DNA of 63,960 bases, counting the filler, from Collodictyon triciliatum (lineage: Eukaryota), in assembly GCA_043381765.1 (NCBI GenBank). It is 8 parts of 8 records of this genome, joined end to end, with 100 filler letters (N's around TTAATTAATTAA, not from the genome) between each part and the next. Parts side by side here need not be neighbours in the genome. Positions count along the whole stretch, not along the records: positions 1 to 8,961 come from JBHJMP010003217.1; 7 more parts are not named here. The stretch is one strand, 5' to 3'. Both the position numbers and the translations under genes were made by a program. The notes beneath the pieces are model-generated. The model was not told where the DNA came from and did not search any database. It was given only the letters and a program-made list of their open reading frames with translations. Positions 4,011 to 49,527 of the stretch are shown here, one piece after another (position 1 is the stretch's first letter; each line of letters starts with the position of its first letter).

Positions 4011-4220
4011 ATGAAATCATTCTTTAAAAAATCGCACTTTAAAAAATCCAAGGTTGAAAAAAAAAAGAAAGAGAAGAAACTCGATTATTCAAAAGAAGTG
4101 GAGCCCTTTGCCTCGACTGTACACCACTTCATCGAACGAAAAATAAAATATAATGAACAACATGGAAACAAAAAACAAAACATCAATAATCCCAAAAAGC
4201 GAATGGCAATCGAAAATTAG
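4011..4220 (+). CDS. Small Lys-rich hypothetical protein overlapping the integrase start
   Basis: 69-aa ORF whose ATG follows a short AT-rich divergent intergenic region. Confidence 0.45.
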   Translation: MKSFFKKSHFKKSKVEKKKKEKKLDYSKEVEPFASTVHHFIERKIKYNEQHGNKKQNINNPKKRMAIEN

Positions 4221-5382
4221 TGAAGTTTTTTATAATGAGCCAAAGCACACAATGTCACGGGACGCCCTTTTTACAGCGGTGCGTCAGTATGGCATTTCTC
4301 GATCATATGTCGATAAATTTATTCGAAGTCAACCAGACTGGCAAATTTTACAACGAGCTCCGAAACCTAAGGATACACCCACGATTATGCGATTTGAACC
4401 GGGATACGTACAGATCGACACAATTGATATCAAAAATATGGAAAGTGATTCAGCCAAGTACTTATTGACATGCGTTGATGTGTTTACACGAAAAATGTGG
4501 GCGTATCCTTTGGAATCTTTGAAAGCCAGCGATGTAGCTGTTCAATTGCAAAAATTCTTAAATTCTTATAAATTAACAAAAACAATTCAGTCAGACAACG
4601 GAAATGAATTTAAAGATCAAGTTTCTACAATACTTGAGAAACAAAAAATAAACCACGTTAAGAGCTTACCGGCTACCCCCACGAGTCAATCATATATCGA
4701 AAGAAATAACGGGACATTAAAGAGGGCTCTTTATGGTTATAAACAGAAAACAGGAAAGGACCCCATACCAGAGCTCGACAGCTTTATTGATTCTTTAAAC
4801 TTACAACCAAATTCTACAACGGGTGTCATCCCAGCTGTTGCCATGCTTCCAGAATATAAAAACAAGATTCTTGAGAATATGGAAAAGTATAACTCAAAGA
4901 AAAATGACCAGGGTAACAGCAAGGATTTAGAACCAGGAGAAAAAGTACGGGTTCGTTTAGAAAAAACGGATATTCCTGCGGATATGAGAAACAAAATCAA
5001 GAAACAAAAAGGGTATCTCCCAAGGTGGTCGTCTGAGGTATATAAGATAAAACAAAGATTTGAAGCAAAGTCAGTTTGGTCCATACCATCTTACACCTTA
5101 GACACCTCGGATAATTTAAAAAACAAGCGTTTTAGAAGGTCTGATTTATTAAAGTTATCAGAAGATACAAAACTTGAGACCCATAAGCCAAAGTCCCAAA
5201 ACATAAGAGAATTTGAAGAGGATGATGAACTTGATGAATATCTCAAAACCAGAGAAAGACGTGAGATGAAAGGAACAAGTGGCTTAGAAGAATCTGACTT
5301 GTATAGATTTAATTCACAAACAAAGGCAAAGCAAGCACATTCTCGTGAAATGCGTTTACTTAACAGAAATAGTAAAAAATAA
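4153..5382 (+). CDS. rve (retroviral-type DDE) integrase, Polinton/Mavirus-like
   Basis: VQIDTID (D), YLLTCVDVFTRK, IQSDNGNEF (D), PTSQSYIERNNGTLK (E), GEKVRV and KGYLPRWS C-terminal motifs. Confidence 0.93.
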   Translation: MNNMETKNKTSIIPKSEWQSKISEVFYNEPKHTMSRDALFTAVRQYGISRSYVDKFIRSQPDWQILQRAPKPKDTPTIMRFEPGYVQIDTIDIKNMESDSAKYLLTCVDVFTRKMWAYPLESLKASDVAVQLQKFLNSYKLTKTIQSDNGNEFKDQVSTILEKQKINHVKSLPATPTSQSYIERNNGTLKRALYGYKQKTGKDPIPELDSFIDSLNLQPNSTTGVIPAVAMLPEYKNKILENMEKYNSKKNDQGNSKDLEPGEKVRVRLEKTDIPADMRNKIKKQKGYLPRWSSEVYKIKQRFEAKSVWSIPSYTLDTSDNLKNKRFRRSDLLKLSEDTKLETHKPKSQNIREFEEDDELDEYLKTRERREMKGTSGLEESDLYRFNSQTKAKQAHSREMRLLNRNSKK

Positions 5383-5868
5383 TTATTGTTTTTTTTCTCT
5401 ATTTTTTCTAAATATTGTTTTTTTTTCTTGGTTTTTTACTTCTTTAAGTTCTTCCGATAGTTTTTCGTTATCGTATTGTACGCTCCTCTCTCTGTTGCTA
5501 TCCCTAGTCTCTGCCGCTTTCTTGCGCCCTTTTTTGAGAATCTCATCAACATCTTTCTTTGTTTTGAAAAACATGACGACATTGTCCTGATTTACGCTCC
5601 ACTGGGTTGCGTACTGTCTAAAGAAAAATACTTTATCTTTATTTCCTTTCCTTCGTAATTGCTCTTCCTCATTTGGAATTCTGTTTATAAAGCCGCCCTT
5701 TCTAAAACCACCTTGTGACTCGGTACCGCTGTTATATGTTCGTGGTTTTGCTATATAAGATATGTAGTCCCCGACCTGTATGTCTTCTGGGGAAATTGGA
5801 TCCCAATCATCGGAGCTAAAGTTTTCTGGGAGAAGTTTCTTGATTGTTTCTGTAATTTCTGGAGCCAT
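5383..5868 (-). CDS. Conserved unknown protein, homolog of 42421-42945
   Basis: GDYISYIAKPRTY...GF...WS aligns by eye with GDYVAYKTKARTW...GF...WS of element B. Confidence 0.85.
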   Translation of the reverse strand: MAPEITETIKKLLPENFSSDDWDPISPEDIQVGDYISYIAKPRTYNSGTESQGGFRKGGFINRIPNEEEQLRRKGNKDKVFFFRQYATQWSVNQDNVVMFFKTKKDVDEILKKGRKKAAETRDSNRERSVQYDNEKLSEELKEVKNQEKKTIFRKNREKKQ

Positions 5869-5880
5869 GTTTATTGCTAG

Positions 5881-5911
5881 AAAAAAAATATTTATAGAAA
5901 ATATTTTTTTT
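5881..5911. terminator. AT-rich hairpin (13-bp stem, 5-nt loop) downstream of the helicase stop
   Basis: AAAAAAAATATTT-ATAGA-AAATATTTTTTTT. A role as 3'-end signal is inferred. Confidence 0.5.
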
Positions 5912-5929
5912 ATTTAAATGTAAATTTAT

Positions 5930-8326
5930 TTAATTTGATTTTTCTGGATAATAATCGTCTATTTTAAATTTTAATCCATTTACTTTATTTCTTATTTCTG
6001 AAATGGATATATGATAAAAAGTTCCCAGCTCATAAATGTCTGTTTCCTCTGAATTTTTTCTTAAACTTGTGTACTCTTTTCTTACAAACAATTCATGATA
6101 TGTTGTTATGTATTCTTTTAATTCTCGACTTTTCACAAAAGATTTAAATGTCATATTTACAAACGCTGGTGCTATAGATTTACAAATTTCTTTATATAAT
6201 TCAAAAAACAACTGAGCTTTAATTATTACTTTCTCTTTTGAATGAAAATTGAAGCCACGTTTTGGATTTAGATATCCGTATTTTTCTTCATAGTAGCTGT
6301 CCCACTCAAATAAAATAATGTCCATGAATTGGAAAAACGTGGGTTTAAACGTTTCCTTAAGATCGTTTTGTGACTCACACATTGGTAAATTGTCGTAATT
6401 GAATTTCGGGTCATACATCTTTAAGATATACAATAATAGCAATTTGTTATAATATTCGTTTCCACTTTCTTCTCTCAATGCTTTTTGCTCTTCCGGGCTC
6501 AATCTATGTTCTTTGCAATCTATCATTGGGAACCTTCTGAAGTTCTCACTCTCAAACTCGAAAGCGCATTGTTTATTAGTAAGGGCCATATATGAAGTAT
6601 AATTTTTAACTGGAAAGGGATCTGTACGCATTAATCTGATTTCTGATCGAGACCTTGTAATCGCCGCTTTTATATTTGAAGTAAATTTCTTTGTGTCCTT
6701 GGTTTCTGACTCTTCGCACAATACAAGAAGCTTGTTATATATCGATGCGTTAAAATCGCCAAAAAGATGCACGGCACAACTCTGTGACGTGAAATAAGTT
6801 TCTCCCAGTAACTTCTCGGCATAATGCTTTTCAAGAAATCCAGTTTTTCCAGAGCCTCCCGTAGCGTTGCGAAGACACAAAGCTTTCTCGCATAATTTGG
6901 GTGTGTCAAAAAGTATATTACCTAGTATATTTATAAAGTACTTTATATTGTACTCTTGTATATTCTTGTCGTTATGGAAACAAAAAATTTCCTCTATTTG
7001 CCATTTGGTTTTTGAGTTGTCCCAGTCTAATTGCTCTTGTTCTGTCAATGGAGTATTTTTCAAGTCTTCAACCAATTTTTTATAAGCCTCGTTAGACATG
7101 AGACCCGGGTGACAAAACAGTGCGGTCCATGGGTGACCCTTAAATGTGTTGTACACGCCTTTTGGCACATTTACGCCATATGGATAAAATCCAAACATGA
7201 CATATTGTCTAATCGGATAACTGCAAATTGTTTGCCAAACCTCGTGGGGCTTATCTGTCAAATTAAATTCCTCGTGAAATTGCATAACGTAGGACTTGGC
7301 GTTTTGAATTTCTTGTGGTCTGTCAAATAATTCGTTTTCACGATACAGCTTTCCGTTCATTGTAAAATGCGTGTGCCAAAAATCAGGCGGTGGCGGTTCT
7401 GTTTTTGGAGGCACATAAGAAAATTCCCAGTCCATTTGCATCTTCTTTTCTGTTAATTTAACTTCATAAGATGTCTTTTCTTTTATAAAAGTTTCACATT
7501 TTCTTAAAAGATGTTCGGGAAATTCAACATCTTCTCCATTTTTTCGAATCATACAACCATCGTGAATTAGCACATCCACACTTCTACCTACTGAGATAAA
7601 AAATTCATTCATTGACTCCAATAGAATGCGTTCCTCATTTTGTAAAAAAAGACTTAGCATCTTAAATTTTTTATTTGGACCAGCCTGTAAAAGTACGTGG
7701 TTATCTCCTCGAAGTCTAATTTTCTGCCATTCTTCTTTTTCCGTCCATATAAATTCGGCAAGTCTTGACCATTCATGTTGAATGTTTGAAAGGTCTTTGT
7801 ATACCTCTTCAATGTCAAAAGATTGGCAATAATTTGGGATTTCAGCAAATTCAGGAGCTTGCCCGCCGTACGCTATTTTTAACAATGCGATCTTGGCGTC
7901 AAATCGATCCATGTTGAACCTCTCCATTATATCAGCAAGTACTGCCTCCCGATTTTCGACATAAAATTTAATGTACTCATGTGGCAAATTACGATTTTTT
8001 GCGTACTGGTACGCGATTGTGTAGTGGCAGTTTACAATGTCGATGTCATGATAGTGTGCTTGACACATTGGAACCCTGATTCTGCTTGTACTCATGCAAC
8101 CCAAGGATTGGGCCCGTGCTGGATATACGCGCCCAACTCTCAGATTTTCAAAACCCTTTGCGAAAGAATACGAGACTTCCAACAAATTCCCTTTTGTTAA
8201 TTTTCGACACATCGCCACAATTGCTTTTTTTTCTTGGGGGGAAATTATTGAATCGTCTTCGGAAAGCAATTGGCTGGAAACATTGACGTCAAAAATTTCA
8301 AATTTTGTGGCAAAAGTGGAGGTCAT
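5930..8326 (-). CDS. TVpol (family A polymerase-like primase) fused to SF3/D5-like helicase
   Basis: GRVY, DIDIVNCH (motif A), AKIALLKIAYGG (motif B), LIHDG (motif C); helicase Walker A GGSGKT, Walker B VLCEE, motif C ALTN. Same architecture as the Sputnik and PLV primase-helicases. Confidence 0.88.
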   Translation of the reverse strand: MTSTFATKFEIFDVNVSSQLLSEDDSIISPQEKKAIVAMCRKLTKGNLLEVSYSFAKGFENLRVGRVYPARAQSLGCMSTSRIRVPMCQAHYHDIDIVNCHYTIAYQYAKNRNLPHEYIKFYVENREAVLADIMERFNMDRFDAKIALLKIAYGGQAPEFAEIPNYCQSFDIEEVYKDLSNIQHEWSRLAEFIWTEKEEWQKIRLRGDNHVLLQAGPNKKFKMLSLFLQNEERILLESMNEFFISVGRSVDVLIHDGCMIRKNGEDVEFPEHLLRKCETFIKEKTSYEVKLTEKKMQMDWEFSYVPPKTEPPPPDFWHTHFTMNGKLYRENELFDRPQEIQNAKSYVMQFHEEFNLTDKPHEVWQTICSYPIRQYVMFGFYPYGVNVPKGVYNTFKGHPWTALFCHPGLMSNEAYKKLVEDLKNTPLTEQEQLDWDNSKTKWQIEEIFCFHNDKNIQEYNIKYFINILGNILFDTPKLCEKALCLRNATGGSGKTGFLEKHYAEKLLGETYFTSQSCAVHLFGDFNASIYNKLLVLCEESETKDTKKFTSNIKAAITRSRSEIRLMRTDPFPVKNYTSYMALTNKQCAFEFESENFRRFPMIDCKEHRLSPEEQKALREESGNEYYNKLLLLYILKMYDPKFNYDNLPMCESQNDLKETFKPTFFQFMDIILFEWDSYYEEKYGYLNPKRGFNFHSKEKVIIKAQLFFELYKEICKSIAPAFVNMTFKSFVKSRELKEYITTYHELFVRKEYTSLRKNSEETDIYELGTFYHISISEIRNKVNGLKFKIDDYYPEKSN

Positions 8327-8402
8327 CCTGAATTATCCAATATTTTTATCTTTAAGTTCAAACGAACGCGCGTTTTTTTTGCAAAAATACTTTACAAAAA
8401 AT

Positions 8403-8596: not shown

Positions 8597-8961
8597 ATGA
8601 ACGTCAAGCGAGTTTCAAATATAAAAATACAACCTTTGTCAAAACAAAAACCCGGCAAAAATTTGGGAATCCCGTACCCTTTGCCAGATATATCTTTAAG
8701 AAATTTCATCCTGGGGGTTTTGGGCCCAACTGGTTCAAGTAAAACGACCCTGTACGCGAATCTGATCAGAAAATATTATTTCGAGGTATTTAACAAAATT
8801 TATTTTTGTTCACCGAATGTGACGGATGAAGGGAAGGTATATGACAAGTCACTGGCCTCAATTGAATTCTCCGAGGAGCGTGTATTTCAGACAATAAATA
8901 ATGAAATAGCAGATTATATAAAGGAGGATATAGAGTGTGACGAGGAATTTCAAAAAGAGGA
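8597..8961 (+). CDS. A32/FtsK-like genome packaging ATPase (N-terminal part, contig-truncated)
   Basis: FILGVLGPTGSSKTT Walker A-like, FNKIYFCSP; aligns with the element B ATPase. Confidence 0.82.
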
Positions 8962-9061
8962 NNNNNNNNNNNNNNNNNNNNNNNNNNNNNNNNNNNNNNN
9001 NNNNNTTAATTAATTAANNNNNNNNNNNNNNNNNNNNNNNNNNNNNNNNNNNNNNNNNNNN
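8962..9061. other. Artificial contig linker (N-TTAATTAATTAA-N); same 12-mer at 18056, 33102, 42144, 51180, 55076 and 60303
   Basis: Identical six-frame-stop 12-mer embedded in N runs seven times. Confidence 0.98.
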
Positions 9062-18011: not shown

Positions 18012-19047
18012 NNNNNNNNNNNNNNNNNNNNNNNNNNNNNNNNNNNNNNNNNNNNTTAATTAATTAANNNNNNNNNNNNNNNNNNNNNNNNNNNNNNNNN
18101 NNNNNNNNNNNATCTGACTGTGTCTGGATGACATCATAGCTTGTATAAAAAATATTACAAATTTTGAATTGAAGTTAAAAGGCGATTACGAAGGATAGAA
18201 CCTTCGAAGTTTTTATAATTGCCATGGCGTGTTTACCATAGATTCTAAAAACATATGCCAAACATGATTTTCTTTGAGTTAATAATGAGGGATTCAAAAC
18301 GCGTACAGTTGAATTACGTGAGGATGACACAAGTTTTTTTAAAATAGATATCTCCCTGCAGAGCTTTCAGAAACCTTCATATACTCGATTCTTCTCCTAC
18401 TAACAATTTTGACAGCAACTTTTGTGTTGGTCACCCCATGCAGCCCTCCTACAGCCAAGGTACGGGAATATGGGGTCAATCAGAGAGATATTTGTGCCCT
18501 CTGAACCTCGCCAGATGTTCTTCAAGGAGCCCACCCACCTTTGACTTTGCCATATGTCCCGCTTCCGAGTGTTTTGCCGAGTACGTAGCTCCCGACCCGC
18601 ATCGTCAGAAATCCTGCACTGTCTGGATATGTTTTATAATTATACATTTTTTTTTTAAAAAAAAGGGGTGTTTTACTCGCAGTCCTCAGGCGAAGGCAGG
18701 CTTCTTTCTGCGTGGTTCTGCCAGTGCAGCTGTGATGGGCTCCTTTGTGGCCGGGTGGGAGTGGCGAGCGTGGTGCGGATTTGTGCGCGCATGGCTCAGA
18801 GACATTGACATGCCGATTATTAGGGTTTGCTGCCGAATGTGGGTTGAGGCAAAAGCGGCATCAATGGGCAGACATTGATAACTCCAGAAAAAGACTGACA
18901 TATGCTTCCCTTTTCTGGATTTTATTTTAGTGAGTATGCGCAAGCTGACCCGCACAAAGACAAACGCAGCCAAGCAGAAGATTGCGGTGCAGGAGGTTGA
19001 TTCTCGAGGAGCTTTCGTGTGTGGGATGGAAGCGAGTTGGCTTCTGC

Positions 19048-33057: not shown

Positions 33058-33869
33058 NNNNNNNNNNNNNNNNNNNNNNNNNNNNNNNNNNNNNNNNNNN
33101 NTTAATTAATTAANNNNNNNNNNNNNNNNNNNNNNNNNNNNNNNNNNNNNNNNNNNNTTTACTGGTGCAAATTAGTGTATTTTTCAGTTCTTTATTTGAC
33201 ATAAATTTCAACCTAGAGTTGAACTATAGAATCTATTTATTTTAACTAAAATTATGGACCTGATAATATACTGAAAATGATGATTGAATAAGACAAAACA
33301 AAATTTATCAGCATTATTAAAAATTGAAATAAAATATGACTTTATTTTCTCTAATATCAACACAATTTTCTAATACATTTTATGATACTTATGTGCCAAA
33401 TTATAAAATCTATCGAAATTTACATTTTAAAAATGCTGTAAAAAGAGAAATATTCTTAAAAACTACACTTCACAATTATCATTTATAAAATATTTTGGTC
33501 AAATGATATTATACCATGCAACTAAGATATGTTAGTTTATAAAATTGTGCCTTGGCTTTTTTTTTCCATACTCTCATACACATTATGCTATCATGTTATA
33601 TGAATTTTTCTGTTAAACTTAGAAATAGTGATAAAACTTCGAATCAAAATTGCAATTTCTGTTCAAAATTATTTGATCAAAAATTCAAAATAACGGAAAT
33701 ACGATTACATATCAGTTACTATCAAATAGAAATCACAATATTCGAATTAATTAGAAAACAGAAGGCCGAAAATTACACGAAAGAAAATATTGGATGAATT
33801 AAGAAAGTTAAAAGATGCTGATTATTGAAAAATCTGATGAATTATAATACGTCAATAGGCTCTACACCA

Positions 33870-36800
33870 ATGAGGAAAAGTCTACAACTTCAGCAAATAA
33901 TACTGGGTAAGCCCTTTTCATTTCTAATCATTCTCTTTTCTATTATAACATATTCGTCTATTAGTTGCCACCATCCTTGTATACATTTCGTGTTCTTCTG
34001 CGCAAGTTTATTCGATTTACACTGTCGGAACGGGCCATACAAGTACTGTGTGGAGTGTTGCTATTACTTCTGATGGTTCAAAAATTGTTTCAGGGAGTTC
34101 TGATAAAACAATAAACATTTGGTATTTTTCTGATGGAGCTTTGATTCGCACATTAACTGGTCATATTAGTGATGTTTACAGTGTTGCTGTTACTCCCGAT
34201 GGTTCTAAAATTGTTTCTGGAAGCACTGACCGAACAATCAAAATCTGGAATCTTTCTGACGAAGCTTTGATTCGCACATTAACTGGTCATAACGATGGTA
34301 TTTGGAGTGTTGCTGTTACTCCTGATGGTTCAAAAATTGTTTCAGGAAGTTGGGATAACAATATTAAAATTTGGAATCTTTCTGATGGAGCTTTGATTCG
34401 CACATTGACTGGTCATACCCGAAATGTTCGCAGTGTTGCTGTTACTCCCGATGGTTCAAAAATTGTTTCAGGAAGTTGGGATAACAATATTAAAATTTGG
34501 AATCTTTCTGATGGAGCTTTGATTCGCACATTGACCGGTCATACTTCTTATGTTCAAAGTGTTGCAATTTCTCCTGATGGTTCAAAAATTGTTTCTGGAA
34601 GTGAAGATTATACAATCAAAATATGGAATCTTTCTGATGGAGCTTTGATTCGCAACTTGACTGGTCATGCTGGCATTGTTCAAAGTGTTGCTGTTACTCC
34701 CGATGGTTCAAAAATGGTCTCTGGCAGTTATGATAATACAATCAAAATCTGGAATATTTCTGATGGAGCTTTGATTCGCACATTGAGTGGTCATACTAGT
34801 ACTGTTCTAAGTGTTTTCGTATCCCCTGATGGCTCAAAAATTATTTCTGGGAGCCATGACCGAACTGTTAAACTTTGGAATTTTCTTGATGGAAGTCCTG
34901 TATACACCAGAGGTTCCAAAGTTACAAGTATCATTTCTTCTCAGTCTAAGTCAACTTTTATTTCAGGGCACTCAGATAATATTATAAGGATATGGAATCT
35001 GTTAAATGGAAATCTAATCAGGACATTTATTGGACATACAAGTGTCGTTAACGCACTGACTTTAACAGCAGATGGCTCCAAAGTAATTTCTGGAAGTTCA
35101 GACAAAAGAATAAAAGTATGGAATGTTGACGACGGTTCTTTGATTCAATCATTTGAAATTCATACTGATTCAGTGAGCTGCGTTACTTTGACAGCGGATG
35201 GAACCAGTATTATATCAGGAAGCAACGATAAAACAATCAAAATTACAAGTATTTCAGATGGAGCTGTAATTAGAACGTTAAGTGGACACACTGGAATAGT
35301 CACAAGCGTTGCTTTAACTCCTGACAGCTCAAAAATTGTGTCTGGCAGTGCGGAAAAAACAATTAAAGTTTGGAATTTTATTGATGGAACATTAGTTCAA
35401 GATATAAAATTTCACACTGATTCTGTGAACTGCGTTGTAATCACATCAGATGGAACAAAAATTGTTTCTGGAAGCAGCGATAAATCAATCAAAATAACAA
35501 GCATGTTGGATGGGAGCTTAATTCGCACACTTAATGGGCACACAGGAATCGTTAAGACAGCTATTATTTCTCCAGATGGCTCTAAAATTATTTCTGGAGG
35601 CAGTGATAATACAATAAGAATATGGAATTTTTCAACTGGAGTCACAATAAATATAATGAACGAACATAAAGGTCCAGTAAATGGAATATCAGTTGTTTCT
35701 GATGGCACGAAATTTTTGTCAGGAAGCGACGATACAACAATCAAATTGTGGAACTTTCCTGATTTCAGCTTGATTCTGACCGTTTCAGGCCACTCAAGTT
35801 CAGTGAATAGCGTTGCTTTGAGCCCAGATAAAACTAAAATTGTGTCAGGAAGTAGTGACAAAACAATAAGAATTTGGAATTATGCTGATGGTTCTCAAGT
35901 GCTTTCGATAAATGCCCATGTAAATGCTGTAAATAGTGTAGTTGTTTCGGCTGATGGAACAAAAATAGTGTCAGGAAGCAGTGATGGCACAATAAAAATG
36001 TGGAATTTCTCGGATGGTTTATTATTGAAAACATTTAGCGGACATACTTCAGCTGTTCGAAGCGCAGCAATATCATCAGATAGTTCAACAATAGTATCAG
36101 GAAGTGACGATACAAATATAAATGTTTGGAGAGTTTCAGATGGAATTTTAACTCGAACATTATCTGGACATACAAAAGGAGTGAATTCTGTTTTTATCAT
36201 TCCTGATAATACCAAAATTATATCAGGCAGTGCTGATTTTTCGATAATAATATGGAATCTATCAGATGGAGCATTACTCAGAACACTTACCGGTCACGGA
36301 AATGCTGTCAGATGTGTCATTAACTCTCTAGATGGAACAAGAATCATATCTGGAAGCAGCGATAACACAATCAAAATTTGGAATATATCAGATGGCACGT
36401 TAATTAGAACAATAACAGGACATACGAGTTCAGTAAATAGCATTTCAATATCATCTGATGGAACAAAATTATATTCTGGGAGCAGTGATAAATCGGTAAA
36501 AATATGGACATTATCAGACGGAAGAGAAATTCGAACACTTCTGAGTCACACCGATTCCGTCAATAGTGTTTTCGCAACTATTGATTCAAAAATAATTTCA
36601 GCAAGCACTGATAGATTTATCAAAGTCTGGAGTCCATGCCAAGGAGGATATTTTTTCAATCAACAATCAAACACATGCGAAAAATGTCCAACTGGCTCTT
36701 ATAATAACGGAAATGAGCTCACATCTTGTTTATTATGTCCAACTGGAACTTATAATCCATCGACTGGCTCCACAAGCATTAAAGATTGTCTTCTGTGTGA

Positions 36801-39800
36801 GGAAGGGACATACAATAATCTTTTGGGTCAATCAATTTGCAAAAAATGCGAGGCTGGAACATTTAATAATCTAAAGGGTCAAGTGGCATGTAGTAATTGC
36901 ACTGCTGGATTTTACAGCAATTCAGGAGATAAGTTATGTGCTCCATGCCTTGCAGGAACATTCAATCCAACCATCAGGGGTGCTGGAAATTCTTCATGTC
37001 TTTTATGCGAACCAGGAACATACAACAGCGTCGATGGAAAGTCGAGTTGTTTTGACTGTCCTGCTGGATTTTACATGAATGAGAAAGGAAAGCAATTTTG
37101 TAATCCATGCCCGACTGGAACTTACTCAAACAAAACAAAATCAATCACCTGTGAAAAATGCCCGGCTGGTTCCTACAATCCAAATGTTGCATCAATCAGC
37201 ATAAGCAACTGTCAGCCATGCCCTAAAGGAAGATATTCATCAAAATCAGGAGAATCATCATGCGAACTTTGTCAGCCTGGCTCATACAATCCACAAAGTG
37301 GTCAACACTCGTGCATCAATTGTACATATGGCACTTATAATCCAAAGTTTGGTTCAACAAGCAACTTCTCATGTATTAATTGTCCACAAGGCACTTTTGA
37401 AAATAGCTATAAAGACGATTGCACATCATGTCCAGCTGGTACATTCAACAATAAAACTGGCTCATTCAATCAATCATCATGCATTTCATGTCCAAATGGA
37501 AGCTACAGCCCAGAGAGAAGCTCATCATGCAGCTCATGCTCATCAGGATACTATCAAAAAGAAGGAATCACAAAAGACCCAAAATCATGCCATGCATGTC
37601 CAAAAGGCACATTTAACTCAATATCCGGCTCATATGGATATAAATCATGTAATGAATGTCCACAAGGTACTTGGAATGATAAAAACGGTCAAGCATCATG
37701 TGCATCATGCCCAGCGGGTACATTCAACAACAAAACTGGCTCGTTCGATCAATCATCATGTATTTCATGTCCAAACGGAAGCTACGGCTCAGAGAGAAGC
37801 GCAACATGCAGCTTGTGTTTATCAGGATTCTATCAAAAAGAAGGAGTCATAAAAGATTCAAAATCATGCTATGCTTGTCCAAAAGGCTCATTCAATTCAA
37901 TATCCGGCTCATATGGGGACAAATCATGTATTGAATGTCCACAAGGTACTTGGAATGATAAAGATGGTCAAGCATCATGCACATCATGTCCAGCTGGTAC
38001 ATTCAACAATGAAACTGGCTCATTCAATCAATCATCATGTATTTCATGTTCATATGGAACCTACAGCTCAGCAGGAAGTTTATCATGCAGTTTGTGCTCA
38101 TCAGGATTCTATCAAAAAGAAGGAATAGCAAAAGACTCAAAATCATGCTACGCTTGTCCAAGAGGCACATTCAACTCAAACTCCGGCTCATATGGAAACA
38201 AAACATGTATTGAATGCCCACAAGGTACTTGGAATGATAGAGATGGTCAGGCATCATGCACATCGTGTCCAGCTGGTACATTCAACAACAAAACTGGCTC
38301 ATTTGATGAATCATCATGTATTGCATGTCCTAATGGAAGCTACAGCTCAGATAGAAGTTCATCATGCAGCTTATGTTTATCAGGATTCTATCAAAAAGAA
38401 GGAATCACAAAAGACTCAAAATCATGCTATGCTTGTCCAAAAGGCACATTCAACTCAAACTTCGGCTCATATGGAAACAAAACATGTATTGAATGCCCAC
38501 AAGGTACTTGGAATGATAGAGATGGTCAGGCATCATGCACATCGTGTCCAGCCGGTACATTCAACAACAAAACTGGCTCATTCAATCAGTCATTGTGCAT
38601 TTCATGTCCGAATGGGAGCTACAGCTCACCAGGAAGCTCATCATGCAATTCATGCTTATCAGGATTCTATCAAAAAGAGGACATCACAAAAGATTCAAGC
38701 TCATGCTATGCTTGTCCAAAAGGCACATTCAACTCAAAATCCGGCTCATATGGAAACAAATCATGTATTGAATGTCCACAAGGTACTTGGAATGAAAAAG
38801 ATGGCCAAGCATCATGCACATCATGTCCAGCTGGTACATTCAATAATAAAACTGGCTCATTTTATCAATCATCATGCATTTCATGTCCAAACGGAAGCTA
38901 CAGCTCAGAGAGAAGCTCATCATGCATTTTATGCTCACCAGGATTCTATCAAAAAGAAGATATCATAAAAGACTCACAATCATGCTATACTTGTCCAAAA
39001 GGCACATTCAATTCAAAATCCGGCTCGTATGGAAACTCTTCATGCATCGAATGTCCACAAGGTACTTGGAGTGATAGAGATGGTCAAGCATCATGCACAT
39101 CATGTCCAGCTGGTACATTCAATAACAAAACAGGCTCATTCAATCAATCATCATGCATTTCATGTCCAAATGGAAGCTACAGCCCAGAAAGGAGCGCATC
39201 ATGCACATTATGCTTACCAGGATTCTATCAAAAAGAAGACATTATAAAAGACTCGGAATCATGCTATACATGTCCAAAAGGCACATTCAACTCAAATTCC
39301 GGCTCACATGGGAACAAATCATGTATTGAATGTCCACAAGGCACTTGGAATGATAGAGATGGTCAAGCATCGTGCACATCATGTTCAGCTGGCACATTCA
39401 ACAACAAAACTGGCTCATTCGATGAATCATCATGCATTTCATGTCCAAATGGAAGCTACAGCTCAGAAAGAAGCGCATCATGCACATTATGTTCACCAGG
39501 ATTCTATCAAAAAGAAGACATTATAAAAGACTCGGAATCATGCTATACATGTCCAAAAGGCACATTCAACTCAAATTCCGGCTCATATGGAAACAAATCA
39601 TGCATTGAATGTCCACAAGGCACTTGGAATGATAGAGATGGTCAAGCATCATGTACATCATGTCCAGCTGGTTCATTCAACAACAAAACCTGCTCATTTG
39701 ATGAATCATCATGCATTTCATGTCCAAATGGAAGCTACAGCTCAGAAAGAAGCTCTTCATGCAGTTTGTGTTCATCAGGATTCTATCAAAAAGAAGGAAT

Positions 39801-42099
39801 CATAAAAGATTCACAATCATGCTATGAATGTCCAAAAGGCACATTCAACTCAATATCCGGCTCATATGGAAACAAATCATGTATTAAGTGCCCACAAGGT
39901 ACTTGGAATGATAGAGATGGTCAAGCATCATGTACATCATGTCCAGCTGGTACATTCAATAATAAAACTGGCTCATATAATCAATCGTCATGCATTTCAT
40001 GTCCAAATGGAAGCTACAGCTCAGAAAGAAGCTCTTCATGCAGTTTGTGCTTATCAGGATACTATCAAAAAGAAGGAATCATAAAAAACTCAAGCTCATG
40101 CTACACCTGCCCAAAAGGCACATTCAACTCAATATCCGGCTCATATGGAAACAAATCATGTATTAAGTGCCCACAAGGTACTTGGAATGATAAGTATGGT
40201 CAAGCATCATGCACATCATGTCCAGCTGGTACATTCAACAACAAAACTGGCTCATACAATGTATCATTATCATGTATTTCATGTCCAAATGGAAGCTACA
40301 GCTCAGAAAGAAGCTCATCATGCATCTCATGCTTATCTGGATTATATCAAAAGGAAGGAATCATAAAAGACTCGGAATCATGCTACACTTGTCCAAAAGG
40401 CACATTCAACTCAAACTCCGGCTCATATGGAAACATATCATGTATTCAATGTCCACAAGGCACTTGGAATGATAGAGACGGTCAAGCATCATGCACATCA
40501 TGTCCAGCTGGTACATTCAACGATAAAACTGGTTCATTTAATCAATCATCATGCATTTCATGTCCAAATGGAAGCTACAGCTCAGAAAGAAGCGCATCAT
40601 GCAGCTTATGCCCGACACGCTCAACCACAATTAAAGAAGGCTCCAAATCAATAGATGATTGCAAATGCTTAGATACTTATGTGTCATATGATGGCATTTG
40701 CACATGTCCTCCAGGACAATTCGAGGACGGAAGTGAATGTGTTTCGTGCAGACTTGGCTCATACAAACCAACAAACAGCACGAATTTCTGCTTATCTTGT
40801 GGTGATAAATTTACGACAAAAAACAATGGCTCTCTTTATTCAACCGATTGCGAATGCAAGATAGGATTTGAGTTGAGAAACTCCACTTGTGAATGCAAAC
40901 CAGGATGGTATGAAAAGCAAGGAAACTGCTACGAATGTCCTTCAGATACATACAGCGATGATTATGGACTAAAATATTGTAAAATGTGTCCTGAGGGATT
41001 TGAATGTCAAGGAACCAGTCAACCAACAGTTGCCCCTGGATATTGGCAGACTCAAACTAAAAATGGAGAATATGTCGCTTATAAGTGCTTGAATGAAAAT
41101 GCATGTAACGGAGGAAATAAAACTTGTGCTGATGGATACATTGGACCATTATGTAGTATTTGTGAAAATGGATACGGAAAAACTGGATATTATTGCACTA
41201 AATGCCCACCAAAAGGAGTGAACATATTCTTGATATTCCTGAGCTTTTTTATTCCACTAGCCTTTGTTTTCTTCATGATAGAGCAATCAAGACAAACAAG
41301 AACGGGAAATATTCAAATCTTGAAATCCCTCTCCTCACATTTCCAAGTTTTGTCATATTTGGCGAACTTTGATGTAAAATGGAGCTCAATCATAATTTCA
41401 GCTTTGAAAATTCCAGCCCTATTTTCATTTTCCCTTTCAATAGACAGCTACCCAATTGAATGCCAAATAGAAATGTCAGTGTATGAAAAATTATTGTTTA
41501 CGATGTTGAGTCCAGTAATTTTGACATTAATAATGCTAATATTCGTTTTGATGAAAGATTTGAGGAGACTTTACAAAAACGAGATTTCAAGAAGTAGCTT
41601 TACACTCAATCATTTTCGGGAAGAAATCATGTACTCGATGTTGGTCATGCTGTTTTTTGTCCATCCTTCAATCACATCAAGCGTCGCACAAATATTTCCA
41701 TGTGAAAAACTCGGAGATATAAGTTATTTGAAAGCTGATATGTCGATTTTATGCGAAGATGAAATTTACAAATTTTGGAGGAATATTTCTTTTGTTTTCC
41801 TTTTTGCCTATTGTATCGGCGGACCGCTCTTAATTTTAGTCAGAATCATTCGCAAAAGAACAGCACTGGCGAATCCAACTTCGAAAACATATGCACTTTT
41901 CAGATTTTTGATTGATGGATACACTGAAAAGTGCCAATACTGGGAGGTCGTCCTGATGATGCAAAAGTTGGTCATTGTGATGATAAGCACGTTCTTTCCT
42001 GCTTCGCTACAAATATACTTTGGTCTGTGGCTGCTGTTTCTGATGATTGCTTCGACCATTTATTTCAGGCCATTCATATCCAATGTGCTGAAAAAGTCA
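33870..42099 (+). CDS. Large surface protein: signal peptide, ~20 WD40 repeats, Cys-rich (GCC2/TNFR-like) stalk, multi-TM C-terminus (truncated)
   Basis: ATG at 33870 and a 58-nt GT-AG intron (33907-33964) give MRKSLQLQQIILVATILVYISCSSAQ in frame with track ORF 34048; CxxCPxGT repeats; GPLCSICENGY motif followed by TM helices. Confidence 0.9.
34030..34890 (+). repeat. Near-identical 126-bp WD40-coding tandem repeats (7 units)
   Basis: GATGG(T/C)TC(A/T)AAAAT recurs at 34072, 34198, 34324, 34450, 34576, 34702 and 34828. Confidence 0.92.
37420..40610 (+). repeat. 279-bp (93-aa) Cys-rich coding tandem repeat, about 11 units
   Basis: CPAGTFNNKTGS..CPNGSYS..GFYQKE..CPKGTFNS..CPQGTWND unit recurring with ~279-bp period. 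Confidence 0.92.
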
Positions 42100-42199
42100 N
42101 NNNNNNNNNNNNNNNNNNNNNNNNNNNNNNNNNNNNNNNNNNNTTAATTAATTAANNNNNNNNNNNNNNNNNNNNNNNNNNNNNNNNNNNNNNNNNNNN

Positions 42200-42225
42200 T
42201 TTATGTTAATCATGATTAACATAAA
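42200..42225. repeat. Perfect 26-bp palindrome at contig edge
   Basis: TTTATGTTAATCA|TGATTAACATAAA. Confidence 0.93.
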
Positions 42226-42420
42226 TTCACGACAGCCGCTTGGTATTTTTAATAAATAGCAATATGAATTTCCTATTTTAGGAAATATGGTAATTGCTAT
42301 TTTCCAGTTTTAGGAAATATTCATTGCTATATGAAAATTCAAAAATTCAATATTTTAATTCAAGTTGTAATTCAGGCTTAAAGATTTCTCGCTAATATAA
42401 ATTAATATCCCTACAACAAT

Positions 42421-42945
42421 ATGGCCGACGTAATTAAACCTAAACCTGAACGCAAGCAGCTTACTATGGAAGAAATTGAAAGAGACTATGAACCAACTAC
42501 CCTTACTGCTTTAAAAAAAGGAGACTACGTTGCATACAAAACAAAAGCTCGAACTTGGAAAAGTAAATCCGGGGATGAAGTAGAATATGCTTCAAAAATT
42601 AATCAAGGTTTTGTATCTATGCTTCCAGACCCAGACAAACAACAAGGCTTTCGTTCCACTGGTCTCATCTACGGATTCAAAGGAGCGAAGGGGGGTGCCT
42701 GGAGTCAGAATGAACGATTTGTTGAAAAAGTATGGAAAGTAAAAGATGAAGTATTTAAAAACCGAAAGAAAGCAAATGCTGAGAAAGCGTATAAAAAGAA
42801 AACAGAAAATTATAATAAACGCAAAAGTGACGAAGCAGAAGAATTTAAAAGTAATAAAAAGGCTGCTCAAGAAATTGAAGCTGACCCAGAGCTTTTAGAA
42901 CTCGCAAAGAAAGCTCGTAGGTTTAGACAAAAACAAACAGAATAA
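42421..42945 (+). CDS. Conserved unknown protein, homolog of 5383-5868
   Basis: GDYVAYKTKARTW...NQGFVS...GAWSQN, basic helical tail; convergent with the integrase. Confidence 0.85.
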   Translation: MADVIKPKPERKQLTMEEIERDYEPTTLTALKKGDYVAYKTKARTWKSKSGDEVEYASKINQGFVSMLPDPDKQQGFRSTGLIYGFKGAKGGAWSQNERFVEKVWKVKDEVFKNRKKANAEKAYKKKTENYNKRKSDEAEEFKSNKKAAQEIEADPELLELAKKARRFRQKQTE

Positions 42946-42971
42946 ATTTTTTATAAAATAAAAAATTTATT
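42941..42971. terminator. AT-rich hairpin (14-bp stem, 3-nt loop) between convergent stops
   Basis: AATAAATTTTTTAT-AAA-ATAAAAAATTTATT. Confidence 0.55.
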
Positions 42972-44933
42972 TTTTACTTTCTCTGCGTTTTTTATCTCTT
43001 TCACGTTCTCTTGCCAATTCTTTTTCTTTTTGTGATAGTGACATACTAGCTCTACGCATAGCTTGAGCTTCGGCGTTCTTTTTTTTAAATGCTTCTTCAC
43101 CCATAGCCTCCCTTTGTTTTTTTTCCTTTCAGCTCTAGCTACTGAAGCAGCTGTGGGTTGCTTTTTACTTGGTGGTATAGGTGTAGCACTTTCAGCTTGG
43201 ACTTCTGCTCTTTCAAGAATTCTTTTTTGTGCTTCTTTAATAAGGTCTTGTGCCTCATTGTATTCTCTCATAAGTTTTCTAAACTCAACTTCTGTTATAT
43301 CTTTTGTTTTTATTGGTTTAGGTATTTTACTTTTCTCTGCTATAATCTGTTCGTCAGATATAACAGCATAACCAGGTGGCAATGCTTCAAGGAGTTTATA
43401 CCCTGGTGGATTTTTTAAACCACCCTTTGCATCTACCTTGGCTTTGATTTGTGCATAGATTCTATTAACATCACTTGTCAATTCTGCAATATTCACACCC
43501 GCTTCTTCTCTTCGCCTCTCTATTTCCATTTGTTCTTTTCTTTTATCTTCATTTTCTTTTAATAAACGTTTTGTATCAGATATAGATCTTTTCAAAGGTA
43601 TTTTCTTTTTGCGCTCAACTTCTACAGACTTGGCTCTTTCTCTTAATTTTTCTTTAGTTTTATCTATTTGCGCTATAGTAGGTGGCTCAACAGCATCATC
43701 ATCATCATCAATAGCGGGTGGCTCTGGTGTATTGGGTGGAGCTTTTGTTTGTTTTGTTTTTAATATTTCTGGTTGGTCATCACCACCATCCTTTGCTTCT
43801 GTAAATGATACAGCCACTGGTTTATTTAAACTCTCTGCTGGAACTTTTAATAAATTTCCTCTCAGGAATCTTTTTGAATTTAACTTTGATTCTGGGATTC
43901 GTGCATTGTATCCCAAATCAGCAGCTCTGCTTAATTCTGCATTCACTTCTTTGATTTTATATTTCATAGCACGATATGGCAATTTTGAATTATACACTTT
44001 ATCAACTTTATATACGATAGGTCCCCACTTTGGCATAAAGCCTTTTTTTTCACTTATTTTCTTTCTTAATTCATTTGGAAGATTTAAACTCTCCATCGCA
44101 ATTCTTACAAAATCTCCTACATTTAATTTATCCCTTTTTTGTTTTTTAGCAATCTCATCTAGTCTTCCTATGTCTGCATCTAAAATCTTGTCAAAGTTTT
44201 CAGGAACCAATGCAACATTTGGAGCGACTCCAGTAGTTCTATTAATTTTATCATTTAAACCATCTACAATTTTTTGTAAATTATTTCTTCTAAAAGGACT
44301 CTTACCTGTTTCCATATAGTGTTTACCTAAAGCCCTTTTCAAATCTCCATTTGCTCGCTCGACAAACGCCTGAGACGTAGGTGTGTGTGGAGTTGAATAA
44401 ACCACTTTTTTTATTCTTAGTGTGTCTCTTGACCAAGAAGATAAAACCCTTTTTTTTTTACCATTTTCTGTTATTGGTGTTGTTAAAAATTTAAATTCAT
44501 TATCACATTGAATTACGGATAATCCTGGATATCTACCTTTAATTGATATTAGTGCATTTTGAACACTCTCAAGTTGTTTATTAATAATTTCTTCAGCAAA
44601 TAATTTTCTTGTTGCAGGTACTAAACCTACTAAAACATAATCATATTTAATTCGCTGATTATCTTCATTAAATTTTTTTGTATCTATTAAATCTATTTGC
44701 ATATAACCAGCATCTTCAATATTGAAGGCTGTTGTCTCTGTAGCTTTTGTTTTGGGTTGAGTTCGTTGATATGTTGTATTTGTTGATATAACTTTTTTTA
44801 TAAAACTCTTTGGTATGGTTGGAGGATTCATTTGAAAATATTGATATAAGGCATTTATACTTTTTTCAGGTCCACTTTCAAACTGACTTTGTATTCTATC
44901 TGTTCTTTGCTTATCACGTTCCTGTTTATTCAT
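42951..44933 (-). CDS. rve DDE integrase with long charged C-terminal extension (probable frameshift near the 3' end; corrected stop 42967)
   Basis: MQIDLID, IQCDNEF, PTSQAFVERANGDLK, GDFVRI, KGFMPKW; homologous to 4153-5382. Confidence 0.9.
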   Translation of the reverse strand: MNKQERDKQRTDRIQSQFESGPEKSINALYQYFQMNPPTIPKSFIKKVISTNTTYQRTQPKTKATETTAFNIEDAGYMQIDLIDTKKFNEDNQRIKYDYVLVGLVPATRKLFAEEIINKQLESVQNALISIKGRYPGLSVIQCDNEFKFLTTPITENGKKKRVLSSWSRDTLRIKKVVYSTPHTPTSQAFVERANGDLKRALGKHYMETGKSPFRRNNLQKIVDGLNDKINRTTGVAPNVALVPENFDKILDADIGRLDEIAKKQKRDKLNVGDFVRIAMESLNLPNELRKKISEKKGFMPKWGPIVYKVDKVYNSKLPYRAMKYKIKEVNAELSRAADLGYNARIPESKLNSKRFLRGNLLKVPAESLNKPVAVSFTEAKDGGDDQPEILKTKQTKAPPNTPEPPAIDDDDDAVEPPTIAQIDKTKEKLRERAKSVEVERKKKIPLKRSISDTKRLLKENEDKRKEQMEIERRREEAGVNIAELTSDVNRIYAQIKAKVDAKGGLKNPPGYKLLEALPPGYAVISDEQIIAEKSKIPKPIKTKDITEVEFRKLMREYNEAQDLIKEAQKRILERAEVQAESATPIPPSKKQPTAASVARAERKKNKGRLWVKKHLKKRTPKLKLCVELVCHYHKKKKNWQENVKEIKNAEKVKNKFFIL

Positions 44934-45018
44934 ATTTATATTAACATAAACTTTTTTATAAATAAACGTAACTTAAAGATAAATTGAAATTGTATTTTAT
45001 ATATAATTTCAATTAAAA

Positions 45019-45207
45019 ATGCCGCATCAATTCACAGCTGAAGAAATACAACAATTTAATTATTATTGCCTAGTAGAATGGGAGCTACCACTCGAAATCG
45101 TTCGCGACCTTGTCCGGTCTGCTATTAAACTCAAAAAACGCAATCGCAAAAGTTACATTGAAAGAAAACAAAAAAGAATATCACCTACGGAATCACCAAC
45201 AAAATAA
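45019..45207 (+). CDS. Small hypothetical protein (62 aa)
   Basis: Fills the integrase-helicase gap; AT-rich ATG context. Confidence 0.55.
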   Translation: MPHQFTAEEIQQFNYYCLVEWELPLEIVRDLVRSAIKLKKRNRKSYIERKQKRISPTESPTK

Positions 45208-45232
45208 ATAAACTGAGATTTATCATTGAAGT

Positions 45233-47593
45233 TTATTCAGTTAAAAATTCTTTTTCAATCAAGTATTTCTTGACCCATTGCTCAGTCAATTCGTATTTAC
45301 GAGATGGGTTTTGAATTATCCCTATCTTGTGAAGCTCTCTGCCAAATTTATGTAAGGTCAATATTCCTTCAGATTGTCGACCAGCGTCTGTCATAACATT
45401 GCGGAACAGTGAATATAGTTGCATTGGTACCATTGCTGATTTGAATGCTTGTTTATATATGCTACCTTCATCATCTTCATATATCACTAATAAGAATTGG
45501 TCAACTTGATTAATTTGTAACATCATTTGAGCTTTCCATATTTGTTTTGTATGCTGTTCTTCAATAATATATTTTTCACTATTCCAAGTATCATCATATA
45601 TCCATCTTAAATATTGAACAAATTTTAATAATTGATTTTTATCACTGATTGTTTCATTTAATTCAATAGCCATACTTTGAGGCATTAATTGTTCTCGACA
45701 TTGTATAACACAATATCGTCGATTAGACTTTGTAACAGTAAAAACAGATTCATTGTTTGTATTACACACCACGTGAACGTAATTATTTATTACATATTGA
45801 TTTGCACATTTTTTATTTATTGTAATATCTGAAGCTACTAAATTATCTTTCATTACATCCGCAAATTTTACACCACCAGCTCTATTACCTTCTTCTATAA
45901 CAACGTAACACTTATTCTCCAATAAGCCATTAAAATCGCCGAATAGCTCACCCATTTTCGATGACTTCACTCCATAATTTTTACCTATGATATTGTCTAA
46001 AAACATTGTATGTAAAATAGTAGATTTACCGACACCCTCTGTGTGACTGTAAAAAACAAGACAAGTGTGAAATCTACCCATCTCGTGAGCTGCAAATAGT
46101 AAGTGAGCAAACCATTGTAATACATATGCATAAGCACCCGAATCCTCATCACATAATTGAGTCCAAATAGTTTTGAGTATTATACTATCTCGGCAATATT
46201 TATCTGCTTCATCATCAGTCATTGGTATATACATATCCCCGTATTTTTGTATATCAAACCCGCGGAAAATGTTATAAGTATTAGGATAAACCGCAGGGTT
46301 TAAGTCCATAGGTAAATCAGGTCTAAATACTATTTGTTCGACTACTCTTTTGTGCTTATCACGATAATACAATGGTAAAAAACTTACCCAATCACCTGTA
46401 TCAATCCAACCATAATGTGCATTTGCATTCTTAGCTGCTTGATGTTTATATACGTGAAGTGTATGGTCTTTTTTTATAAGTGTTAAATCACCATAATATA
46501 AAAAGTGATTTCTGTCAAATTCGTCTTTTATATATTTGTAATATAATTTAGTTTGTTCATTTTCTAAATCGTGCAATAATATAACTTTGTCTCCGTTAGT
46601 TAGTTTTTTTTCTATAGTTTTTGTTAAATAACTAACCCCAAGTGATTTTTGAGATTCATCTTGTAAGCTACTTTCAACACTTTTTATAACAGATTCAAGA
46701 ACATCAATTTTTTGTTGAGTAGTGCTTCCTTTTTTATCTTCCATTTGATTACAGATTCTTATCCAATACTTTGATAGATTCAATATACCAATATTAACTA
46801 AAACATATGCAATTTTTATCCAACTATCATAATCTGAATCGATTAATTTAAAATATTCCCGTTTTAAACAACACTCTATATAAGCATTCACATATACTTT
46901 CGTATCATAGTCATATGTAGAAATCCAATCAACTTTATATATCGATTCAATTAATTTAGTTTCTTCCCATTCAATATCTTCATTTTTCTCATTATCTGCA
47001 TCTGATTCTTTGCGTTTTTTTCCGGGATACTTATCAATAAATCCACTTTTAATAAAATCAAAGTCTTGCAGCTCATTGTATATATCTTTTGTTTCACTTT
47101 CCCACATATTTCTTTTACTGTGTATGACATCGATATCTGGCATATCTTTACCAAACACTTTCACCCCTTCCCATTTTTCATCCCAGTTTTTTGGCTTATT
47201 CACATAAATATGAAACCCCTTTGTATTGCCTTTTGTCCAGCAAATATTATTATTAATTTCTGGGATAGAAAGAATTTTTCCAAGCTCGTCGGGAGTATGA
47301 ATATTCGGGTCGTCACAGTCGATACAAACAATATTTGAATATTTTAAAAAAATAGAAAAACATCGAACACAATTTTTATGTTCGGATGCTGTTAACTTTC
47401 TATCTCCTAGTGCCTTTACATATTTTTGCTTTGCTAAATTTTTACTAGCCTGCCTCCATTCAGGCAAATCTTCAAGTTTAACATTGTTTTTTTCTAGAAT
47501 TGTTAGTTTTTTACCTTCGTGCATCAGATAATGAGCATAGGCAAAAGGTACTTTGTTAATGATAAGAAATTCTCCGATATTCATATTATTCAT
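45233..47593 (-). CDS. AEP/Prim-Pol primase + PriCT-2-like + SF3 helicase
   Basis: CIDCDD (DxD), TKGFHIY (AEP motif II), DYDSWIKIAYVL (PriCT-2-like), Walker A EGVGKST, Walker B VVIEE, motif C CNTN. Confidence 0.88.
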   Translation of the reverse strand: MNNMNIGEFLIINKVPFAYAHYLMHEGKKLTILEKNNVKLEDLPEWRQASKNLAKQKYVKALGDRKLTASEHKNCVRCFSIFLKYSNIVCIDCDDPNIHTPDELGKILSIPEINNNICWTKGNTKGFHIYVNKPKNWDEKWEGVKVFGKDMPDIDVIHSKRNMWESETKDIYNELQDFDFIKSGFIDKYPGKKRKESDADNEKNEDIEWEETKLIESIYKVDWISTYDYDTKVYVNAYIECCLKREYFKLIDSDYDSWIKIAYVLVNIGILNLSKYWIRICNQMEDKKGSTTQQKIDVLESVIKSVESSLQDESQKSLGVSYLTKTIEKKLTNGDKVILLHDLENEQTKLYYKYIKDEFDRNHFLYYGDLTLIKKDHTLHVYKHQAAKNANAHYGWIDTGDWVSFLPLYYRDKHKRVVEQIVFRPDLPMDLNPAVYPNTYNIFRGFDIQKYGDMYIPMTDDEADKYCRDSIILKTIWTQLCDEDSGAYAYVLQWFAHLLFAAHEMGRFHTCLVFYSHTEGVGKSTILHTMFLDNIIGKNYGVKSSKMGELFGDFNGLLENKCYVVIEEGNRAGGVKFADVMKDNLVASDITINKKCANQYVINNYVHVVCNTNNESVFTVTKSNRRYCVIQCREQLMPQSMAIELNETISDKNQLLKFVQYLRWIYDDTWNSEKYIIEEQHTKQIWKAQMMLQINQVDQFLLVIYEDDEGSIYKQAFKSAMVPMQLYSLFRNVMTDAGRQSEGILTLHKFGRELHKIGIIQNPSRKYELTEQWVKKYLIEKEFLTE

Positions 47594-47657
47594 TGGGTTT
47601 TAATATTTTTATATAAACGATTGTTTTTAAGCCTGTAATTAAAGCTGTATTTTACAT

Positions 47658-47841
47658 CTTATGTAGGAATTGTAGGATTTGTACCTTTTTTTCAACTCCT
47701 TTTTATATAAAAAAGCCCAATTGCTATTGCTATTTCTAATAAAATTGCTAGCAATATTTTTAGCAATTAGCAGTGAAATTTTATATTTTTTTATAAAATG
47801 GAGTTAAAAAAAAGGTACAAATCCTACAATTCCTACATAAG
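47658..47841. promoter_or_regulatory. 42-bp inverted repeat (1 mismatch) with TGTAGGA iterons; putative origin
   Basis: Arms at 47658-47699 and 47800-47841; more TG(T/C)AGGA units at ~47899-47925; directly upstream of the primase-helicase gene. Confidence 0.6.
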
Positions 47842-48169
47842 TTATCAAAAAGAGTAAGGCTTAAGACTGAAAATAAAAAAAAACTTTTTTACAAAGTATG
47901 TAGGATTTGCAGGATATGCAGGATTTTTAAAAAAAAGTTATTCAAAGTCCAGTATAATAGGTACCGTACTTTTTACAATATGGTATGAATTTTTTTTTCC
48001 ACATTTGTCTTTCCGCTTTCGTCGAGAATTCAGACTTTCGAACCAATCGATCACCTCTTTCCACGTCTCAAAATTGAACACGTCACCGTTTTCACTATAG
48101 ACCCTCAACATACTAGATTCAACAAAAAAAAAACAGAGAAGACGCGAGTTTAGGTGGGGGTGGGTAGCT

Positions 48170-49521: not shown

Positions 49522-49527
49522 AATATA

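Follow-up and report, generated by a model that had tools for sequence, protein, structure and literature searches.

Polinton-like viruses are large-scale invaders of protist genomes, yet to our knowledge hardly anything is established about how their integrases choose a target. In Maverick/Polinton elements and chromoviruses the integrase bears a chromodomain, and a chromodomain fused to the integrase often plays a targeting role in such elements; LEDGF/p75 combines a PWWP domain and AT-hooks with an integrase-binding domain. Phage excisionases and RDFs work together with tyrosine or serine recombinases, and their folds are of the winged-helix or HTH type; we know of no directionality factors of the phage kind for DDE integrases. 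Chromodomain targeting appears in the reference list of PMC8547959, and PMC12220804, on cryptophyte polinton-like viruses, discusses rve integrases and helicase-integrase adjacency. Among the papers found on polinton-like viruses with a chromodomain, AT-hook or Tudor domain, no title or abstract opening points to a protein like the one described here. The discussion of integrases and helicases in PMC12220804 does not mention the gene, although its supplementary tables may carry the family as an unnamed cluster.

Here we describe two copies of a small gene, each lying tail-to-tail with an integrase gene. The product is best regarded as an orphan small-barrel accessory protein of a virus-like mobile element, whose function we infer. 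The window, meaning the whole stretch of 63,960 nucleotides analysed, consists of eight contigs linked by seven artificial N44-TTAATTAATTAA-N44 spacers. Since these spacers are artificial, the neighbourhood of different pieces carries no meaning, and ORFs that cross a spacer (for example the end of ORF 34048-42147) are artefacts. The spacer at 42100-42199 (no strand) is an artificial junction between a host-like contig and the contig with copy B, and an identical one lies at 8962-9061. The large host-like ORF that seems to enter element B belongs to a separate contig, so the elements are known as contigs and not as insertions in a host chromosome.

Element A corresponds to the contig at 1-8961 (GC 34.5%) and element B to contig 5, at 42200-51135 (GC 32.9%). 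Their main features, together with the spacers, are as follows.

1432-2091, + strand: HNH endonuclease ORF on the contig of element A (HNH_3, E 1.1e-7; NUMOD4, E 3e-4)
4153-5382, + strand: integrase A, 409 aa, retroviral type (Pfam rve, E 1.5e-10; PDB integrase cores, E 2e-6)
5383-5868, - strand: copy A of the small protein, 161 aa (ORF; relatives 52-82% identical)
5869-5929, - strand: 61-nt spacer separating helicase A from copy A; metagenome locus L001 conserves it (side-by-side comparison)
5930-8326, - strand: D5-like primase-helicase A, 798 aa, directly upstream of copy A (Pfam DUF5906, E 2.7e-15; weak VapE-like match)
8597-8961: start of a P-loop protein, a 121-aa fragment truncated by the contig end (weak P-loop matches)
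42375-42385, + strand: GGCTTAAAGAT, 36 nt before the start of copy B
42421-42945, + strand: copy B of the small protein, 174 aa, with the architecture of copy A (ORF; BLASTP to copy A)
42951-44933, - strand: integrase B, 660 aa as read (weak rve_3 match; 30% identical to integrase A)
45233-47593, - strand: D5-like primase-helicase B, 786 aa, upstream of integrase B (Pfam DUF5906, E 2.9e-13)
8962-9061, 18012-18111, 33058-33157, 42100-42199, 51136-51235, 55032-55131 and 60259-60358: artificial spacers

The contig of element A holds two further ORFs without a Pfam match, and that of element B a 62-aa ORF at 45019 and five more ORFs without a Pfam match. Elements of polinton-like-virus type are recognised by an rve integrase, a replicative helicase, a packaging ATPase, a double-jelly-roll capsid and terminal inverted repeats. 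Of these, an integrase and a D5-like helicase are present on both contigs and the P-loop fragment has weak matches only; neither a capsid gene nor terminal inverted repeats were found on these two incomplete contigs. Contig 5 was recovered at 90-99% identity in runs labelled freshwater, reservoir or aquatic metagenome, and parts of it occur in 20 runs from 14 studies; four of these runs were compared in detail.

The homology proposed in the earlier note for 5383-5868 and 42421-42945 is confirmed by sequence comparison, which identifies copies A and B as true homologs and the reading frame as a real conserved gene. Aligned pairwise by BLASTP, the two copies match significantly, with identity at 36 of 132 positions (36.6 bits, E 4e-8). 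When an HMM was trained on copy A plus 12 close relatives and on nothing else, it recovered ten of ten proteins of the copy-B type, scoring 31.0-68.6 bits; among 2,000 shuffled controls the highest score was 8.0 bits. Residues 1-112 hold the signal and by themselves score 30.3-68.0 bits. Each of the four motifs listed beforehand (D(W/Y)xP, GDY(I/V)xYxxKxRT, GF(I/V)xx(I/L)P and WSxN) was found in both copies, as DWDP, GDYISYIAKPRT, GFINRIP and WSVN in copy A and as DYEP, GDYVAYKTKART, GFVSMLP and WSQN in copy B. Eight residues (G33, D34, Y38, K41, R43, G59, W90 and N93) are invariant in a 19-sequence alignment of the family. Copy B differs from the family member P0018 by one residue. Comparison of copy A with its homolog in L001 gave pN 0.134 and pS 0.743, so the frame of the small gene is under purifying selection. 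The proteins are basic as a whole (pI 9.35-9.61), and a six-frame HMM scan found no third copy of the gene in the window.

The integrase stop of element A (5380-5382) abuts the small-gene stop (5383-5385), and in element B the two stops lie 5 nt apart (42945, 42951), so that both pairs indeed end within a few bases of each other, as had been claimed. The surrounding orientations differ, also as described before: the order is int> <small <helicase in element A and small> <int <helicase in element B. Two metagenome loci, found with a narrower alignment of the family, extend the comparison. L001 reads helicase> small> <integrase, with abutting stops, and L002 reads small> <integrase, with 1 nt between the stops. 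When linkage was scored over the four known contexts (elements A and B, L001 and L002, representing about three lineages), the small gene was linked to and convergent with an rve integrase in all of them, with stops 0, 0, 1 and 5 nt apart, and the small proteins of the other contexts are 79%, 52% and 27% identical to copy A. Elements A and B differ in the side of the small gene on which the helicase is found; in A and L001 it is directly upstream of the small gene on the same strand, and integrase adjacency is the only one common to the four contexts. As these contexts comprise about three lineages, that adjacency may be mere inherited gene order. With stops 0-5 nt apart, the convergent transcripts of the small gene and the integrase must overlap.

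Both integrases have invariant D89, D148 and E183, that is, a D,D35E arrangement, and neither has a chromodomain match in Pfam at E ≤ 0.1. The reading of integrase B is affected by a T run at 43117-43124, which is T8 in the window and T9 in all four metagenome runs compared, the extra T being placed after 43116 in X1, X3, X4 and X5. In the alternative frame the stop falls at 42967-42969, 21 nt from the small gene, and the C-terminal tail as read (the last ~55 residues) is probably out of frame, through either a sequencing error or a real frameshift. The L001 integrase (1670-2452) lacks 442 nt, corresponding to 4859-5300 of the window, and with them its C-terminal domain, while the small gene and helicase beside it are intact. 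This state of L001 suggests that the small protein may not depend on the integrase. In L002 the C-terminal tail of the integrase (778-2082, - strand) carries AT-hook-like KKRGRK and PRGRPKK, the type of motif also seen in some small proteins. The small protein was also compared with the C-terminal SH3 domain of retroviral integrases, of which it might be a free-standing copy. Alignment of the small family with the integrases by hhalign gave a probability of 2%, the 26 aligned columns lying where the CTD begins, and no integrase CTD was among the 50 best Foldseek PDB rows for the small-protein model.

The fold of the small protein was modelled with AlphaFold, which gave the same architecture for copy A (pLDDT 78) and copy B (pLDDT 82). 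In model A a short N-terminal helix is followed by a six-stranded barrel (~22-103), a charged helix of ~50 residues (107-159) and a basic C-terminal patch. The barrel is predicted to be of the SH3/Sm/Tudor-like class, and its nearest solved folds are bL19, Hfq and Lsm, small barrels that bind RNA or nucleic acid; the matches are generic (Z < 8), and none in the PDB reaches E ≤ 1e-3 by Foldseek. Both models and their structural neighbours support the small beta-barrel and basic helical tail that had been proposed from the sequence. Royal-family readers have a five-stranded SH3-like barrel with an aromatic cage for methyl-lysine or methyl-arginine; Y35, Y38, W90, D34 and N93 are conserved in the 19-sequence alignment and, judged from sequence, are potential cage residues. 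A Lys/Arg cluster is present at the C-terminus of all 32 family sequences, whose tails are rich in Lys, Arg and Glu. In five of the 32 (P0008, P0009, P0028, P0030 and P0031) the C-terminus bears an RGRP AT-hook with basic flanks, and P0007 has a near variant of it; copies A and B lack the AT-hook and carry plain Lys/Arg clusters instead.

Comparison with described barrels places the protein in a common fold class. Unlike the Royal-family readers (Tudor and chromo-barrel proteins such as the Tip60/Esa1 knotted Tudor, MSL3 and 53BP1), it has no match to a Royal-family Pfam model in any of 19 members (Tudor, Chromo and PWWP being absent even at E ≤ 10), its structural scores lie within the range of chance arrangements, and it has a long C-terminal helix after the barrel. 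Similarity to bL19 and to Sm/Hfq-type barrels extends to the fold class only: the bL19 rows are 9-21% identical, Pfam gives no match, and the genes stand in another context. Chromodomain integrases and LEDGF share with the present system a DDE integrase, a small reader-type barrel and basic motifs of AT-hook or NLS-like type; the difference is that here the barrel is not fused but has a gene of its own, which abuts the integrase gene at its 3′ end, and that it is not demonstrably a chromodomain or PWWP domain. No integrase-binding domain was recognised in the small protein, and the likeness to these systems would be one of function only.

By sequence, the small family stands outside every described family; by predicted fold it falls into a very common class. 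It comprises 27 cluster representatives (P0001-P0022 and P0028-P0032) among 5.8 billion clusters, all annotated only as ‘hypothetical protein’ and all from metagenome or run assemblies, in which the longest contigs encoding them measure 24.9, 16.4, 16.3 and 12.1 kb. Word-indexed searches returned 12, 20 and 19 proteins. An exhaustive phmmer search with copy B over 1.84 billion representatives gave five matches, all of 145-193 aa, and although this search is blind to length, no fused form of the small protein was among the five. Neither copy has a Pfam match at E ≤ 0.1, and the best PHROGs matches (E 0.014) are to families of unknown function. The only sequence-profile match in the PDB, to ribosomal eL39 (E 0.0026, 44 residues), was read as noise from basic composition and rejected. 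In IMG/VR, pattern searches gave seven matches for the small family and 106 for the integrase type, none of which was confirmed; the helicase found three remote loci whose retrieved flanks hold neither the small family nor a related integrase, and these, at 23-25% identity, are too distant to weigh much. This narrow distribution bears out the suggestion that the gene marks a lineage, and gives a compact marker for one freshwater lineage missing from IMG/VR.

The earlier note had also pointed to a loose resemblance to giant-virus hypothetical proteins. Structural searches lend it weak support: the first BFVD Foldseek match for both models is the Cafeteria roenbergensis virus protein E3T5C2 (E 1.8e-4 for A and 1.5e-3 for B, model B having no match at E ≤ 1e-3), 12 of the best 20 matches are common to the two models, most of the named matches belong to giant viruses, and 12 of the best 20 for model A are labelled giant viruses. 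Models A and B were built from overlapping alignments, so these two results are not independent. The best BFVD matches have TM-scores of 0.31-0.43 (0.36-0.47 for the proteins like E3T5C2) and an rmsd of ~6-19 Å, which indicates likeness of architecture only. For full-length copy A, the three nearest ESM Atlas clusters are Nucleocytoviricota hypotheticals with 183-187 shared features, at a score (0.85-0.86) below the Atlas’s own trust line, while the barrel of copy B alone retrieved phage hypotheticals and DUF3104 at 0.85-0.86 with chance-like counts of 123-141 features. The Nucleocytoviricota proteins concerned (E3T5C2 and others of Catovirus, Yasminevirus and Fadolivirus) are similar in being barrel-plus-helix proteins of ~100-300 aa and differ in their low TM-scores and in having no detectable sequence similarity; sequence searches found no giant-virus protein even at E ≤ 10. 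The resemblance is therefore a weakly supported but reproducible lead, short of a demonstrated relationship.

The 9-mer CTTAAAGAT occurs at 8348-8356 (- strand), 42377-42385 (+), 44972-44980 (+) and 57939-57947 (+). In matching orientation and at a distance of 18-39 nt, these sites precede the start codons of helicase A, copy B, the 62-aa ORF at 45019 and an ORF at 57965, respectively. Six matches were counted in the window where 1.45 are expected, and none of 100 shuffles reached six. It may be a shared promoter element, and its occurrence hints that the contig at 55132-60258 is part of a related element. Upstream of copy A, ATTTTCTAT showed no enrichment (two matches against 2.4 expected); the 61-nt spacer there may hold a promoter of copy A's own. 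On direct reading, the 221 nt that precede copy B show repeated short motifs and inverted repeats.

The small protein probably binds DNA or chromatin. Taken together, these observations lead us to favour, tentatively and with clearly less than even confidence, a small nuclear protein that binds DNA or chromatin as an accessory of an integration/replication module, most plausibly as a factor that tethers or aims the integrase. Such a module would consist of the integrase, the small protein and the D5-like primase-helicase of a freshwater lineage of polinton-like-virus type. Within it, partner recognition would fall to the SH3/Tudor-like barrel, the partner being chromatin, DNA or the integrase; the long charged helix would serve as a spacer or dimerisation rod; and the C-terminal basic patch, with an AT-hook in some members, would bring the protein into the nucleus and touch the minor groove of DNA. 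Its likeliest task would be to hold the integrase complex on host chromatin or direct it there. This reading draws on a separate reader-type barrel, a rod helix, a C-terminus of NLS-like or AT-hook type and a fixed gene position against the integrase 3′ end. Weighing against it are an equally close tie of the gene to the helicase, the intact small gene beside the damaged integrase of L001, the generic fold matches, the lack of Tudor, Chromo or PWWP matches, the absence of the AT-hook from copies A and B, the small number of contexts and the hhalign probability of 2%. Binding to DNA or chromatin, a nuclear location and integrase contact are each steps that we infer, the first of them from the basic tail, the AT-hook in five of 32 sequences and the generic predicted fold only. 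The more specific proposal of a free-standing chromatin-reader-like tether, a ‘split chromodomain’ or viral counterpart of LEDGF that sets the insertion sites of polinton-like viruses in protists, is unlikely. A conserved, separate barrel gene locked to the 3′ end of an integrase gene is a concrete candidate for a targeting or DNA-handling cofactor.

Several other roles have to be set against the tether. That of an excision factor, which the earlier note had listed beside targeting, can largely be discounted. A small basic protein encoded beside an integrase does recall the excisionases and RDFs, but the partner gene here encodes a D,D35E integrase, an enzyme type for which no phage-type directionality factors are known, the predicted fold is a beta-barrel rather than that of an excisionase, and L001 retains an undamaged small gene next to its broken integrase. 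The same state of L001 fits a protein that acts in replication together with the D5-like helicase, or that coats or condenses the viral genome, having merely inherited its place beside the integrase. Such a protein could well be small and basic with a barrel nearest to the nucleic-acid binders bL19, Hfq and Lsm, and its gene could well lie directly downstream of the helicase on the same strand, as in A and L001, across a conserved 61-nt spacer, or share the element CTTAAAGAT, found 36 nt upstream of copy B, with helicase A and two other ORFs. In element B, however, the integrase separates the small gene from the helicase, the adjacency kept in all four contexts is that to the integrase, and the three remote IMG/VR helicase loci have no family member in their flanks, a point of little weight at such identity. 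We regard a role in replication or coating as only slightly less likely than the tether. If the protein proves to be a generic DNA-binding accessory only, it is one more orphan viral gene family.

Regulation of the integrase/helicase module, as a switch between dormancy and activation by a small transcriptional regulator, to which the convergent 3′ ends might add antisense interference, would also suit a small basic protein with an AT-hook in some members, stops so close that convergent transcripts overlap, and the repeats in the 221 nt upstream of copy B. We consider it improbable, given that Pfam revealed neither a helix-turn-helix nor another known regulator domain and that no repeated operator could be shown to be common to both elements, ATTTTCTAT occurring no more often than expected. 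Quite improbable is membership of a wider uncharacterised Nucleocytoviricota family that acts, virophage-like, at the interface with a helper giant virus instead of in integration. It would account for E3T5C2 coming first in BFVD for both models, with 12 of 20 best matches shared, and for the Nucleocytoviricota clusters nearest to full-length copy A. One match is also named a ‘C129R homolog’ of an asfa-like virus, and ASFV C129R is reported to target 2′,3′-cGAMP (PMC9364804). Against it, the matches extend to architecture only, with low TM-scores from models that are not independent, the barrel of copy B alone leads to phage clusters with chance-like feature counts, sequence searches give no giant-virus match, and the matched proteins are all of unknown function.

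Further observations concern the ends and repeats of the contigs. Just upstream of helicase B, positions 47645-47854 form a 210-nt imperfect palindrome of two 105-nt arms, 78% complementary and without a spacer, in which the metagenome variants show several indels; judged from the sequence, a role as an origin or in bidirectional control is conceivable. Contig 5 begins with a perfect 26-nt palindrome (42200-42225), and contigs of two other assemblies stop near the same point, at 42289 and 42413, so that copy B may lie at the end of a genome or next to an assembly-breaking repeat. On the separate contig before it, the long open frame at 34048-42099 (+ strand) shows WD40-like repeats by eye, many Cys-rich repeats and a hydrophobic end, and resembles a gene of a eukaryotic host. 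In contig 1, the non-coding positions 894-982 hold about six tandem copies of a ~15-nt unit resembling AAAAACTTTTGCGTG, and 29-nt perfect tandem repeats in at least three copies (63865-63960) reach the end of the window.
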